Source of the DNA: Flaccisagitta enflata | Taxonomy: Eukaryota | Direction of reading: 5' to 3' | NCBI GenBank assembly: GCA_965153355.1 | Contig: OZ231126.1 | Span: forward strand, 9,920,001 to 9,984,000 | Length of the DNA stretch: 64,000 bases | Part shown: positions 26,901-32,900 of the stretch, piece after piece | Position numbering within the stretch: position 1 is the stretch's first letter | How the letters are laid out: each line of letters begins with the position of its first letter | Program-made: the position numbers and the translations under genes | Notes under the pieces: generated by a model | The model's input: the letters and a program-made list of their open reading frames with translations, nothing else | Databases searched by the model: none | Told to the model about the DNA's origin: nothing

Positions 26901-29900
26901 GTTACGTCCTCTTCCTCCTCCGCGGTTGCGTCCTCTTCTTCCTTCGCGCTCTCTCCTCCTCCAACTCCGCGTTCACGTCCTCATCCTTAACGCTAGGAAA
27001 CACGGTGATCGACGTGTGGGCCTTCTAGCATCGACGATCTTTTTCGCGGACGCAACATCAAATGCAAGAGCGGAGGATCGCCGCTTACGTTGTGGCTCCA
27101 AAAGGAACGACATGGGTTGTTCCTCTTCCCCCCCCCCCCCCCACGGTTGGGCAGGCTAGGCGCGTCGTCTATCCCTGTACATTGCAGATGTCCCCCAAAT
27201 CTTCAGTCGTCTTGTGCTGAGACGGAGGTTGATCAGCTGGTGGAAAACAAGTGTAGTATCATCTGAGCCCCAGACAATGGGTGCCGATGATAAGCTGGTG
27301 CTGTCCCCACCCCTTTTCCTCCTCACTCCTTATCTGCCGTTCCCCCAGTTATTTCTCTTCCTTAAGTTTTAACCTCTTTCAACTCTTCCTTCTTTACCTC
27401 ACGTCAATTCCTCATCTTTCTGTCTACCCCCATCACGATAGTCAATGATGGTTCCCACCCCCCCCCTCCCCCGTGTTGGTAGACTGGGACGGTCTCCCTT
27501 CACAAACATCGAAAGAAAAACAATCTTGACGTGAAGAAAGTGGTTGGATGGCCCGACACAAGATGAGATCTACGTTTCCCAATGACTATACAACGTGGAC
27601 TTTCTCACGAAAGACAACAAATTCAAGACCACGCCGCACATCCAAAGATCGCCGACATTCGGTCCACAAATGGGACACTAGTAAACCTGAAAGATCGTCG
27701 ATCCGTCCATCAAAACCTAGTCGCGGAACTTTCCAAATATCTGGCGGTGGTGCGCATTGCCGACGTGACCGCAATTTCGCTTATTTCCTCGTTCCGTCTC
27801 CGGTGGCTATCCAACATCGCGATATTTACGACGAAGCACACGGCCGACGTGGCTGTATATTCGCGGACCTTCCCAACTCGTCTCCAGGGATTGTTCAATG
27901 TCGCGATACTGACGTCTCCCTCTGCCGTTTCACGACGAGATTCCTGAGACTCGATCAAACTAACGACAACGACTGCGAGTGGAAAGAAGAGAAAGGAAAC
28001 TTGGAAAACGACAGCGCCAAATGCAAGACAGGAAAGCCTTAAAAATTCTCCGTATTTTTTACTAAATTTGCTTTTCCTTTACAGATCTTAAGAGACATTG
28101 AAAAAAAAAATCCTGTTCTTGCAACGTGGAAGTAATACTTTTTATAAAAATTCTTCATGGTAAAATTGAAAGCTTTTTTTCTCCTTTCTCACTTTGCCAT
28201 TGGTACATCGTTTTTTTTTGTTTCTACTAGCCTACAATTTACAAAAAGAAAGAGTCATTTTTAAAGGTAAAATTGGAAATGAAACTTTTTTTTACTGTTT
28301 TACGTCGCCGTCATGCAGTAAACCTCGATTGACCTTTCAGTTTTCCTGCCCCCCCCCCTTACAGTTAAGTGTTCTCACCCTTCATTACATAATAAAGAAA
28401 AAAAAAGAAAATTGGTAAAAGTGGAGAAAACGCCTTTTTTCATATTTTACGTCGCCGTCGTTCGTGTTAACTGTTCTTTTCACGTGAGACTTTCTCCCCC
28501 CCCCCCTCTCTGAATGTCCGGGTCGAACATTTTAAAAATGGGAAAGTAATCTGTAGGCGGTTATTTATAGCATGATAAATCACGCGCATTTCCAATCATT
28601 TATAATCATTGCATGATAAATATCGCACCGCTTATTCCTATTTAGCATGCCGCTTGCCATAGCTTATCGCATAGCTTTTCGTTTAGCTTATGGATCCTAT
28701 CCTTTCCCTTTAACAGTTTAGATCGGTTCAGCCTTGCGGCTTTTAAATGAGTGACTATCAATTAACATCACGAGAACGTTTCCTACTAATTGTCGCATGA
28801 ATATCTATTCACTCTCACCCGTTTCCATTTGCCTCTCTAGATAACTGATCACTAACCCACTTACTAACGATATATGATGAAAGATACTCTTAGTCCGTGA
28901 CTGGAACTGCCTCTCTCGTGATACCCTGTAAGTTGCCATTTAGGGATAAATAGCAGCTTATAATTGAATAATTGAATTTTTTGAATTTGAACAGCTTCTA
29001 ATTCAAATCATTAAGATCATGAGAAATAAGCTACGCGCCATAACACAATTTCAACACGTTCACATACGTGGGTCTACGCGACACAGCCCAGCGGTAACCT
29101 ATTTCACGTGCTTAACACAAAACGGACATCTGCCGCAAGTTGATCGGTAGTTAGTACTTCAACGTGACATTATTTACATCTACGGCACCAAGGGGCACAT
29201 AAAACCCAACGTAATACTCAACGGGACATCAACGTGCCGACACGCTCCCCCCCCCCGCAGTGCCCACATCCCCACGAGAACCATCGTAACGTGGCCGCGG
29301 AACACTGTCAATAACCGAGGATAACGGGATAACAGTATGTAGGCACAAAGCACGTCGCGGCACAAACCGCCGGCGCAGGTATATCCCCGTCCCGCCCCCC
29401 CCCCTCCCCACCCGCCCCCAACCCCCCACCCCACCGACATCGAGCACACCTACAGATCCAAACGTGAATATATGGACGGAAAAGAACAAGAGAACGAAAG
29501 CAAGTTAATAAAAGTTGGCCGCAGCTGTCGGCTAGTTTAACAAAAGTCTTCTACTAATCTTCTGGAGGAACATAACGCGTGACGAGGGTATGAGGAAACA
29601 AGAGTTATACGTTGATTTCACGGTTCACGTGCATCTTTAACTGTAAATCTAATGAGTCATAACTAAGGACGCAGTTTTCGCGTAGATCGAAGGATAATTA
29701 TCAAGTCGGTTCCCTCGACAGTCGCATCTTTTCGGCGTAAACACCATGGTGACCTTCATTTGTGTCCCACGCGCGTATCTCACTCGTCGTCTTCATCGCT
29801 TTCTTTGACCATTGCGGAAAGTTCCTCGATTTTCTCATTTTTCTCTCGGAGGGCTTTGCCGAGGAAGATGCAGTCTTTGCACGTTTTGCTGAGGTCCAGT

Positions 29901-32900
29901 TCCGACGCTGCGTGACGTTTCCACATCTCGATCCTCTCGATGTTGATTGGGAGAGACACGACCCTCCCGGAATCACGAATCTCGATGTATCGAGCCTCGC
30001 GTATTGGGTCGTCTGCTGTTTCCTTCGGGGTTAACGCGTAGCTGTCCATCTGTTGTTGGTAACGGTCCTCCCAGCAGAAATCCCCCGCGATGACCCATTC
30101 GGCAATGTCCGGTAGGATGAGGGCGTTCTCTGACGGACCCGTGTGTTCGGCGTGCGGACTCTGCTCCCCGCCCAGCCCAGAGGTGGGGCGAGACTGCATG
30201 CCGGAGTCGGTCGAGGGATTGCGGCGTCTCTCGCTTGGCTTCGTGAGGATCTCGACGCTTCTAGTCGGGCCCGGAAGTGCAATGACGGTTTTGCCTTTGT
30301 GGGATGGTTCCGTAGCTGTGGCGCTTCGGCTGCTCTGCGGATTCTTCGACGATGGCGCGTTTCTGTTGCCATGATTGGACCGCGCTTTAGATTCACTGCT
30401 GACGAATGCCTGCCCGCGGTTGTTGACCCCAGACGGCGGGGCGGGCAAGGTGGGCAGTTGTTTCGTCTGCGCGTAGTTATCGGCTCGGTCGTCGGCACGA
30501 TCGCAAGGCTCGTCCGCAGCTGACGCACCGTGTTGATCGTAATCAGTTCCTAAAGCGGCGGATGCGTCGAGGCGTTGAAGGGACACCCTTGGCGAGTACC
30601 GGGCTTTGGAACTTTTGAAGTGAGCTGGGACTTCCGGACGTCCGAGTGACGCCGAGCGGTATTGGCGGTCGAGTTCGGTTCTGGTGTTGCTGCGAGCGTT
30701 CGCCGATTGCGCATTTGCGGTTGACGGCGGCGCTTTTTCGGTGTCGCTGTCCGAAATCTCTTCGAGCGCGGAGCCTTCGTCGTTGCGATGGAATGATCTG
30801 CGTGTGAGGTTCTCCTCGACGTAACCCATGGTTTTGCCGTCGCGATCCGTGAGGTGGCGGCGCGTAGTGGTGGTCGACATTGAGGATGAGGTTTCGATGA
30901 GACCTCTAGATCGACGGCGCTCGTCGAAAGCCCCGGTGTACACCGACGGTGGGGAATCACGTCTCGTGCTGCGGCTTTTCGGGCGTGCTGCGACAGAGTC
31001 GGAAGGCGGTTGCAGCTTGCCGTCGCGGCGCACGTGTTTATCCATTCTTGATTGCCTTTCTCCTTGGCCGGGCGTTTGCGTTAGCGCTTGCGTCGAGCAG
31101 GCGGTGGCGCCGACTGCGGCGCCCTTATTCCGGCTATGGGATCGGTTACCGGCGACTGCGCGTTTTACGTCTGCCGTGTTGGTTGGAGATGCGAGGATGC
31201 GGTTGGCTTCCTCTCGATCCTCACTTGAATTCCTAGCCGTAGACACGTCACTTTCTTCAGTCAGAGCTTCCCCGCGACGTTCTTTATCCATTTGCTGTAC
31301 GTCGTCGTCGCTGATGTCGATGCAGACGGTGTGCACCGGTTGGGCTGGCTCCTTCTGCTCTTGACGCGCAGTGCGTTTCTTGGACCCGGAGGCGTTACGG
31401 CGAACTACCGGGGCGAAAGATGAAATCGAATTCGAGCTTGATGGATTTGCCGTTGCAAGTGAGTTGGACGAGTTAGCACGTGAGAGGGCTCGGCGAACTT
31501 CTTCACGTCGAAAACGTCTGCGTTCGTCATCCTCCCGTTTCTGTGCTTTCGTAACCGAGCTTTGCGCATCTTCGCCGAGGGAGACGTCGCTGTCGTAATC
31601 TCGTGACGAGGTGCCTTCGGGACCCGATTTACGCTTCGCCATATCTGCAATTGATTCTGCACGATCCTGTGTTGTTACGGAAATCAATGTAAAAATTTCA
31701 GTGTTCAGTTGTATCCCAGATACATGGCGGGTTTTAATGTTCGGGGCGAGATTCGAGTTTGATTCAGGGGACATGATCATGAATAAATCAAGGTAGGTCA
31801 CAGTGAAGTTTCCACAGAAGGAGAACGGAACGATTAGAACACAATGATTAAACAGTATTTGATTGACGGTTATTTTTACTCTTTTCGTTGTACTTAAATC
31901 GAGTTGAATCACGGTGTAATTCCACGTAACATAGAACAGAAAAAACAGAACGGTTAGATCACAGTGATTAGAAGGCAGTATGTTGTTATTTGGTTTTACG
32001 CTGTTTGATTTCTGTCTGTTATCTTTTGTCTTTTTGTCTTTGACTTTGTCTTTAGCCCATCGTGGGATCACTTTCTCTGTTATTCTTTTAAAGCCGGTGT
32101 TAAACTCTAGAAGCAGTGGGATCTGTGTCACGTGTCACGCAAGCGTGGGAGGAGAGAAAAGTGCAGTGATGGCAATTTAGGATCACATCAATGATTTCAC
32201 TGTGTTTGATGCACGTTTCATACGGTGTTAGGTGTGCAGTGTTCCCCGTTCTCGTAGTTTTGGGGATGTGATCGTATATAGCTCTCGTTTGGAATTTGGC
32301 TAAGTGAGCGTTGTCTTGATTTATGGCCTCGAATCTCGCGATCGCTCTTCTGTGGATCGTGTGTTTGATTGGGACCGTGTCAAATATGTCGAAGACTGTG
32401 CTTTCTGGTGTTCTGCGTGGAAGTCCCGCAAGGCTTTTTAGTGTACGAATGTGTGCTGTGTGGACTTGCTGCCACAGTGTCTTACCCATTCCTAGCCAAC
32501 ATATGGCACTGTAATCGTAAAGTGAGACAATGAGCGCATTTACTAGTTGGAGTAGCAGCTTCGGATCTCGTCCGTTGAGACATTTGGAGATGGTGCTAAT
32601 TTGAATCGAGCGTGGGATGGATTTCCTGATGGTGCCTTCTATGTGTGACTTCCACTTGAGTTCCTGATCAAAGGTGACTCCAAGGAATTTGACCGTCTTT
32701 ACCACCTGGAGGCGGCGGCCGTAGAGTGTGAGATTCGGTGTTGCGTTTCTCATGCGTCCATTCTTACTAAAAATGATGACCTCTGTTTTTGCTGGGCTTG
32801 GCAAAAGGCGCCATTTACTTCCCCACCGTTGTAGCTCGTCTAGATATTTTTGCATTTCCTGACACGCGTGGATCAAGCTTAGGAAGGAGCGCCACTCCGC

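Follow-up and report, generated by a model that had tools for sequence, protein, structure and literature searches.

Introduction

In the textbook view, long interspersed nuclear elements (LINEs) are minimal retroelements that carry one or two open reading frames (ORFs). Can a LINE acquire a third gene and keep it? This question is raised by a 64,000-nucleotide stretch of DNA from Flaccisagitta enflata (GenBank assembly GCA_965153355.1, contig OZ231126.1, positions 9,920,001 to 9,984,000 of the forward strand), here called the window, in which an element on the minus strand carries a long open frame, ORF3, that overlaps and follows the ORF for its reverse transcriptase (RT). All coordinates are positions in the window. 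A model that had seen only the letters (the original prediction) took ORF3 to be a sense-oriented third ORF of a retrotransposon lacking long terminal repeats (a non-LTR element), encoding an accessory protein that might be expressed by splicing or trans-splicing. We regard it as highly probable that ORF3 is a genuine, conserved coding part of the LINE. We favour the view that the element represents a non-LTR retrotransposon of the apurinic/apyrimidinic endonuclease (APE) type, about 9-10 kb long, in which ORF3 is the third cistron after a gag-like ORF1 and ORF2; taken jointly with our readings of how ORF3 is expressed and what its product does, this account seems to us reasonably likely.

A third open frame overlaps the end of ORF2

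Read from stop to stop with the standard code, the minus strand holds three long consecutive frames: 38457..35023 (1144 codons), 35081..32100 (993 codons) and 32134..29780 (784 codons). Each later ORF is +1 relative to the preceding one, the overlaps are 59 nt (ORF1/ORF2) and 35 nt (ORF2/ORF3), and all three ORFs are intact in the window copy. ORF3 begins within the last 35 nt of ORF2, which ends with a TAA at 32102-32100 (the overlap is 32 nt without that stop), and it runs from 32134 to 29783 with no internal stop before terminating at 29782-29780. Counted from a GTG at 32131, it has the 783 codons, and the 32-nt overlap with ORF2, that had originally been predicted. Neither a poly(A) run nor a direct repeat separates ORF2 from ORF3, which bears out the earlier statement that no poly(A) tail or target-site duplication lies between them.

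The body of ORF3 (31642-29783) contains no stops in frame, versus 6 and 24 in the other two frames. It opens with the ATG of the peptide MAKRKSG (31642-31640), and an acceptor-like TTGCAG (31650-31645) lies two bases before it, both as first described. The 492 nt upstream of this ATG also lack stops in the ORF3 frame, versus 16 and 12 in the other frames. None of 20,000 composition-preserving shuffles of these 492 nt was stop-free (mean, 10.2 stops). Thus, the frame appears to be open by design from the tail of ORF2, and not only from the proposed AUG. The upstream part is also open in every database copy that reaches it (proteins P0002-P0006 and P0008).

ORF3 is repeated together with ORF1 and ORF2

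Four public sequencing runs were compared with 27500-40500; run X5 is from a single organism, and X2 and X7 are marine metagenomes. In X5, all three ORFs alike show a summed contig depth of 1100-4660 per bin, versus 98-99 on the flank at 38784-39651, which is covered by one 1257-nt contig (38635-39896) at depth 99 and is single copy. The same coarse contrast between the ORFs and the flank is seen in X2 and X7. The X5 contigs span all classes of likeness to the window, from 99+ to <90%, and ORF3 sits 340 nt or more within the repeated DNA. The window itself holds no second copy.

Protein collections contain the family as well. A word-indexed search of 5.8 billion proteins found six relatives of the 620-residue part of ORF3 at 82-98% identity, five of which are 763-789 amino acids (aa) long. 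An exhaustive search of 1.84 billion representative proteins with the whole ORF3 frame gave just five matches: the family's own cluster, P0008 (a 95-residue upstream fragment, 78%), and P0009-P0011, which are three fragments belonging to a sister family. Among the six database proteins that extend into the 5' part, five (P0002, P0003, P0005, P0006 and P0008) share the same start, a prokaryote-style gene call at GTG, which corresponds in the DNA to the last 9 codons of ORF2. Because these proteins start in codons of the ORF2 tail, each of them has that tail ahead of ORF3. The body of ORF3 also has the strand asymmetry of the other two ORFs, with an AT skew of +0.30 (versus +0.31 in ORF1 and +0.28 in ORF2) and a GC skew of -0.09 (versus -0.10 and -0.11); the region 3' of ORF3 does not share this asymmetry. 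The earlier claim that a sense-oriented third ORF belongs to a non-LTR element is therefore supported: ORF3 is repeated with ORF1 and ORF2 and is conserved among copies.

Further scans added no relatives. Among metagenome contigs scanned with P0001, the only match was an unrelated locus present in two copies (35 residues, 40%), a 166-codon exon-like ORF with no RT nearby, which we rejected as a relative of ORF3. Viral contigs yielded no loci, and none of the short proteins searched (30-51 aa) was found to be related.

ORF3 is constrained at the protein level

The comparison of copies shows that ORF3 is kept open and constrained at the protein level. Conservation of the frame among copies, a check proposed with the original prediction, was indeed found: the frame is open at 82-98% identity, and the listed indels within it are multiples of three. 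Among the best supported 12 of 120 indels, three are in ORF3 (12 nt each), three are in ORF1 (3, 6 and 3 nt), and four are downstream of the ORF3 stop (1 nt each); a joint in that downstream region also skips 4 nt. Among the 40 listed variants (of 912), 23 fall in the ORF3 body, and 11 of these 23 are synonymous versus about 30% expected (P=0.055). The aligned copies differ in the body by at least 192 amino-acid-changing events with no stops, versus 8.1 expected if neutral (P=3e-4), and in a neutral simulation the probability that a copy at 84% amino-acid identity stays open was about 0.007; these protein-based stop-depletion figures are biased towards open frames, since the search covered proteins of 341-1085 aa only.

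The strongest evidence of constraint is a set of conserved islands, which are free of the open-frame search bias. The sister family P0009-P0011, at 33-49% identity, keeps discrete parts of ORF3: TTRRHL.DRDG.T.G..EENLTR.SFH; LDR.YR..SL…P.HF.SSKAR.SP.VSL; RR…DSG..SRPTSGL; LPDI..W…WEDRY…MD.YA.TP…DP.R.A.Y.EI..SG.VV..P…ERI.MW; L.K.CK.CI..G.AL.E, after which come a heptad-like helix and an acidic tail; and a further island of 17 residues. Variability within the family ranges from 1 to 28 events per 30-residue window, and the quietest windows (303-332, 423-452, 633-692 and 723-752, with 1-5 events) are the islands that the sister family keeps. Two of the sister ORF3 fragments are frameshifted near the C-terminus, which indicates that those copies are decaying. 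The sister distances are alike for the two genes, 49% for ORF2 and 33-49% for ORF3.

ORF1, ORF2 and the class of the element

ORF2 has a non-LTR-type RT and an N-terminal endonuclease, the element has no LTRs, and its copies are dispersed and repeated; by these features it is an APE-type LINE. Pfam matches to the ORF2 frame are Exo_endo_phos_2 (1.2e-09, residues 152-243) and RVT_1 (6.3e-27, residues 546-804), PF03372 is also present in relatives of ORF2, and the best PDB matches are LINE-1 ORF2p (7e-15) and R2 proteins. A self-BLAST of 29401-38800 against the window revealed no long terminal repeats; the sole match was 80 nt long (38715-38794 versus 38913-38992), with both copies outside the ORFs. 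ORF2 has a sister at 49% identity (P0013 and P0014), and all other relatives are at <=25% (the nearest at 24-25%).

No RNase H family was found in ORF2 by Pfam at E<=0.1; PF00075 is carried by some relatives at 23-24% identity. An RNase H domain after the RT is present in the I clade and absent in Jockey, and its absence here is what Jockey- or CR1-like elements would show, in contrast to the I clade proper. The nearest known counterparts are two-ORF APE-type LINEs with Cys/His (CCHC) knuckles in ORF1, the Jockey / I / CR1 kind of element, and placement in the Jockey/I group, as in the original prediction, is tentative. Three such knuckles can be read by eye in the ORF1 translation, and Pfam, including zf-CCHC, gave no match to ORF1 at E<=0.1.

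Two further observations concern ORF1. A 60-nt tandem repeat (38148-38263 on the minus strand; 1.9 copies, 91% match) produces a duplicated 20-residue peptide near its N-terminus. One X5 contig, at a single-copy-like depth of 89.7, skips 766 nt (35724->36491) and 1351 nt (36561->37913) within ORF1 and is an internally deleted copy of the element.

The ORF3 product is an orphan

The ORF3 product is an orphan and is predicted to be a mostly disordered, basic protein rich in serine and arginine. Its composition is 13.1% S, 11.0% R and 10% A, with 17 RS/SR dipeptides. The isoelectric point (pI) is 8.6 for the 620-residue form, and the last 130 residues are acidic (pI 4.6). AlphaFold2, run on the whole frame with nine aligned sequences, gave a mean predicted local distance difference test score (pLDDT) of 32.5, with 714 of the 784 residues below 50. 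This agrees with the disordered, S/R-rich protein originally described. The sole confident element in the whole-frame model is an Arg-rich helix at 190-223 (block means, 68-86), and the upstream 145 residues score 21-28. The acidic C-terminal module occupies residues ~666-784 of the 784-codon frame. Modelled alone, the C-terminal 130 residues form two short hairpins and a 50-residue terminal helix at a pLDDT of 53.6; strands and a long helix are thus predicted in the C-terminal region that had been called compact, but its compactness is not borne out at this confidence. A predicted complex of two copies of this 130-residue segment scored 0.27 (mark, 0.32).

Searches for relatives of known families were negative. 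Pfam gave only a sub-threshold Srsx match on the hydrophobic repeats, the best E value in a PDB profile search was 0.71, the ESM Atlas gave scores of <=0.80 or no usable match, and BLASTP found no similarity between ORF3 and ORF1. No clear membrane helix is present: the maximum 19-residue hydropathy is 1.48, versus the usual 1.6, and we therefore rejected a membrane anchor for the upstream hydrophobic repeats. The label "accessory protein" is a fair one for the orphan, largely disordered product of a conserved ORF of the element.

Start of ORF3 translation

The first ATG in the ORF3 frame is codon 119 (31780), and the next is at 31774; their context is weak to moderate, and three tiny out-of-frame ORFs precede the in-frame ATGs. 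Expression by splicing or trans-splicing onto TTGCAG, as originally suggested, is unsupported. Among the joints listed (15 of 31) and the loose ends listed (24 of 724), none falls at TTGCAG/31645; the database proteins show no splicing across 31645; and the 163 upstream codons are stop-free and open in all copies that reach them. This long open stretch points to a translation start near the ORF2 stop. The MAKRKSG codon thus exists as predicted, but its use as the start is uncertain, since the codons before it are stop-free in the ORF3 frame only. We also considered that the upstream part could be an old extension of ORF2 cut off by a frameshift, and rejected this because the ORF2s of the sister families P0013 and P0014 have their C-terminus at that same position.

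Some contigs of a run made from an RNA library fall on ORF3, and one of them (29794-29987, 194 nt) is identical to the window, which is not proof of transcription. RNA run X16 has contigs on ORF3 and downstream and none over 32274-38349; this absence of cover is not evidence, and we did not use it to argue for a subgenomic RNA.

Ends of the element and neighbouring features

The features of the element are collected in Table 1. The 13-nt repeat TAAAATATGAAAA, at 38686-38674 and 28449-28437, is the only exact 13-nt match between 38690-38615 and 29800-28300, and we estimate the chance of such a match at ~0.01-0.02. As a candidate boundary, the pair would enclose an insertion of 10.2 kb with GACGGCGACG as its end. 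This end is complicated by a near-unique X5 contig that spans 28450. A tail unit of ~148 nt, consisting of a G-run, ~45 nt, GACGGCGACGTAAAA and an A-rich end, is tandemly doubled at 28288-28580 (minus strand), which could represent two stacked 3' ends or a duplication of the tail. G-runs with the pattern AGGGGGGGGGG(C/G)(A/G)G are found at 29405, 28507 and 28359, and the 3' side of the element has no poly(A) tail. On the 5' side, 35 X5 contigs cease to resemble the window at 38631 (loose ends), and the consensus that other contigs carry beyond 38631 is absent from the window. The 5' end is therefore at 38673 or 38630 and the 3' end at ~29385, 28450 or 28288; the 13-nt repeat, the doubled unit and the G-runs are not reconciled with one another. 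ORF3 is internal to the element under every candidate end.

Table 1. Features of the element and its candidate boundaries, in window coordinates
Feature	Position	Strand	Remarks
Left copy of 13-nt direct repeat TAAAATATGAAAA	38674..38686	-	Candidate target-site duplication; uncertain, tail unit tandemly doubled
5' untranslated region	38350..38673	-	5' end at 38673 (direct repeat) or 38630 (X5 contigs diverge)
ORF1, gag-like	35023..38349	-	From first ATG; Cys/His knuckles read by eye; N-terminal half disordered, S/T/P-rich
ORF2, APE endonuclease and RT	32100..35036	-	ATG at 35036, 11 nt before ORF1 stop, +1 to ORF1
ORF2/ORF3 overlap	32100..32134	-	No ATG; GTG at 32131, CTG at 32116; ORF2 ends GUU UAA C
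AT-rich upstream part of ORF3 frame	31643..32099	-	38% GC; basic stretch, then two hydrophobic repeats; stop-free in ORF3 frame only
GC-rich ORF3 body	29780..31642	-	58% GC; 620 codons from MAKRKSG plus stop; disordered, basic, S/R-rich
Non-coding region 3' of ORF3	28450..29779	-	Repeated in run X5 (bins 28368-29669); G-runs at 29432-29385, ~29250 and 28507-28497; ends GACGGCGACG
Right copy of 13-nt direct repeat TAAAATATGAAAA	28437..28449	-	Candidate target-site duplication

Several other features lie near the ends. Very abundant short repeats reach summed X5 depths of up to 860,000 at 39652-40500, which includes an 8-nt periodic GGTTGGTC-like array, and up to 84,000 at 38350-38783. The latter region includes a 132-nt unit present twice (38715-38846 and 38913-39044, 83% identical). 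A sub-threshold Rfam match, outside the element, to the H/ACA small nucleolar RNA SNORA27 at 28179-28289 on the plus strand (30.1 bits versus a gathering score of 64, E=0.047) is most likely due to chance.

Elsewhere in the window, a stop-free frame of 2152 codons (1394-7852, minus strand) consists almost entirely of C2H2 zinc fingers (zf-H2C2_2, 1.6e-280, 34 stretches) and is a giant intronless poly-zinc-finger gene with a GC content at third codon positions (GC3) of 0.39. Two long open frames at 8208-9137 and 14995-17616, also on the minus strand, both contain a Myb-like DNA-binding domain with the same weak secondary matches and may be paralogous genes or a repeated unit. On the plus strand, a 413-codon frame at 23952-25193 with an R/N/D/E-rich tail and no Pfam match adjoins a short frame at 23430-23789 that looks RT/RNase-H-like by eye; together they may be the remnant of another retroelement. 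Finally, a 262-codon minus-strand frame (49791-50579) matches positions 670-750 (of 818) in the profile of the mitochondrial-associated sphingomyelin phosphodiesterase family (2.2e-26). This frame is probably a single exon of a host gene and speaks for an animal host.

Discussion

We postulate that ribosomes translate ORF3 on the RNA of the element itself, in a process coupled to the termination of ORF2. Coupling could take the form of reinitiation without an AUG, or of a +1 shift at GUU-UAA-C that would give some ORF2-ORF3 fusion. We offer such a coupled start tentatively, as a serious possibility. Termination-coupled translation of ORF2 is known in LINEs: human L1 reinitiates with no need for an AUG, and SART1 uses UAAUG coupling. 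By analogy, ORF3 would be a downstream LINE cistron read from the same RNA, with no cap-dependent scanning and no required AUG. However, coupling in L1 and SART1 has been described from ORF1 to ORF2, and not for a third cistron.

Alternatively, ORF3 could be real and be made from an AUG of its own (31642, or 31780/31774), through a subgenomic, spliced or trans-spliced mRNA or through internal entry, which is the expression model of the original prediction. In that case the upstream open frame would be a remnant or a feature at the RNA level. The ATG at 31642 (GATATGG) has the region's best Kozak context, with the acceptor-like TTGCAG 2 nt before it; composition changes sharply there, from 38% to 58% GC, and the residues around this start vary little (4 events in 30). 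Copy-to-copy changes upstream are compatible with neutrality (P=0.19), and three database contigs of near-equal length (2745, 2750 and 2754 nt) could be transcripts of one size. However, 163 codons free of stops in the ORF3 frame only (0 of 20,000 shuffles) are hard to explain for an untranslated spacer. In addition, the two indels in the upstream part of P0006 are both in frame, the opening 30 codons are conserved (variability is among the lowest at codons 3-32, with 3 events in 30 sites), no listed joint or loose end marks 31645, and the database proteins are unspliced across it. We consider a start of this kind rather unlikely and prefer the coupled start.

ORF3 might instead be host-derived sequence picked up by 3' transduction and carried as cargo by one LINE subfamily, with no role in retrotransposition. 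Its GC content (58%) and GC3 (0.63, versus 0.49 in ORF1 and 0.51 in ORF2) would suit a foreign origin, as would its own ATG and the long non-coding region that follows it, and passages in one paper document the capture of extra ORFs by LTR and Penelope-like elements (PMC5408684). However, the C2H2 gene of the host in the window has a GC3 of 0.39, not 0.63, ORF3 shares the strand asymmetry of the LINE, and the search of 1.84 billion representatives gave no host-like relative: all five matches belong to the element family or its sister. Useless cargo would decay; the frame is open in copies down to 82% and its islands are kept in the sister family, and both speak against cargo, which we regard as improbable. 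Still less probable, to the point of being hardly credible, is that ORF3 is no LINE gene at all and represents a neighbouring host gene, another adjacent mobile element or a chance frame in a 3' untranslated region. The absence of a Pfam domain and the mostly disordered prediction would be expected of such a frame, and the window offers no second copy for comparison. Against this, ORF3 is repeated as ORF1 and ORF2 are, in contrast to the single-copy flank, five independent database proteins have the ORF2 tail ahead of it, its stop-free length is far beyond chance, and its indels are in frame and its islands conserved.

Some points weigh against our preferred account of ORF3 as a constrained third cistron read after ORF2. 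The frame begins without an ATG, and the ATG at 31642 sits just where GC content jumps, which fits an independent start. Predicted RNA structure at the two ORF junctions is no better than in shuffles (z of +0.63 and -0.59). Taken by itself, the upstream part shows no significant depletion of stops among copies (40 events, 1.7 stops expected, P=0.19), and its substitutions include many radical ones. Copies were compared as proteins, and the selection estimates are not a proper ratio of nonsynonymous to synonymous rates (dN/dS); moreover, the relatives are biased to long open frames and come from a search of proteins of 341-1085 aa only. On linkage, contig depth does not equal copy number and the runs were picked using ORF3, so that only the coarse contrast was used; the evidence includes no single contig spanning the entire RT and ORF3, and the sister ORF3 family is not proven to be linked to the sister ORF2 family. 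Finally, any function assigned to ORF3 is pure inference, with no Pfam, PDB or Atlas relatives and with models of low confidence.

With these points in mind, we suggest how the third cistron might serve the LINE. The protein would start inside the ORF2 tail with a short, conserved, basic N-terminus, followed by the AT-rich segment of hydrophobic repeats, a long disordered S/R-rich basic region with short conserved motifs and the Arg-rich helix, and the acidic C-terminal module. RNA binding would fall to the Arg-rich helix and the RS-like disorder, and the docking of partners to the short motifs and the C-terminal module. ORF3 protein could then be an accessory ribonucleoprotein (RNP) component or adaptor needed by the active lineage of the element, a role that we put forward as possible and with less assurance than the coupled start. 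In its boldest form, the proposal is a three-gene LINE with an AUG-less third cistron read by ribosomes finishing ORF2, and with an orphan, disordered, Arg-rich product required in cis for retrotransposition. By analogy to the accessory genes of complex retroviruses, this product might, for example, help to export RNA or assemble RNPs, or might block host silencing; we consider this strong version doubtful.

A conserved third cistron would show that LINEs can acquire and keep accessory functions. If our account is true, the element would also offer an example from nature of a single eukaryotic RNA on which three frames, staggered and overlapping, are translated. The orphan disordered protein has sharply defined short motifs, and its partners could reveal limits on the spread of LINEs in the host.

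How does this element compare with known systems? Like two-ORF APE-type LINEs, it has an ORF1, here with apparent Cys/His knuckles, followed by an ORF2 with APE and RT, an ORF2 ATG just before the ORF1 stop, no LTRs, repetition in the host and an A-rich sense strand. Unlike them, it has a third, 784-codon sense ORF in an overlapping +1 frame, followed by ~1.3 kb of non-coding DNA with no poly(A). Its ORF2 is also only 24-25% identical to proteins outside its own family and one sister family, and showed no RNase H domain. In full-text literature searches we found no report of a sense ORF3 after pol in an APE-type LINE; Repbase reports and subscription journals lie outside that scope, and a prior description is possible there.

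Additional ORFs downstream of pol are described for LTR elements and for Penelope-like Athena elements in passages of two papers (Rodriguez, Kenefick, Arkhipova 2017, PMC5408684; Arkhipova 2017, PMC5718144). According to these passages, such ORF3s need not be envelope (env) genes and can have other origins, and they encode env-like proteins, GDSL esterases, DEDDy exonucleases or coiled-coil/transmembrane proteins. The ORF3 studied here is similar in being an extra ORF after pol that travels with its element. It differs in that the host element is an APE-type LINE and in having no enzyme domain, clear membrane helix or any relative. An env-like identity was rejected: hydropathy (1.48) stays below 1.6, there is no Pfam, PDB or Atlas match, and the protein is predicted to be mostly disordered.

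A third ORF has also been reported for a LINE. ORF0 of LINE-1 (Denli et al. 2015), as a passage in PMC5203782 describes it, is a primate-specific antisense ORF for 71 aa located upstream of ORF1. We rejected ORF3 as an equivalent of ORF0 on the grounds of strand, position and length: ORF3 is in the sense orientation, lies downstream of ORF2 and, at 784 codons, is ten times longer.

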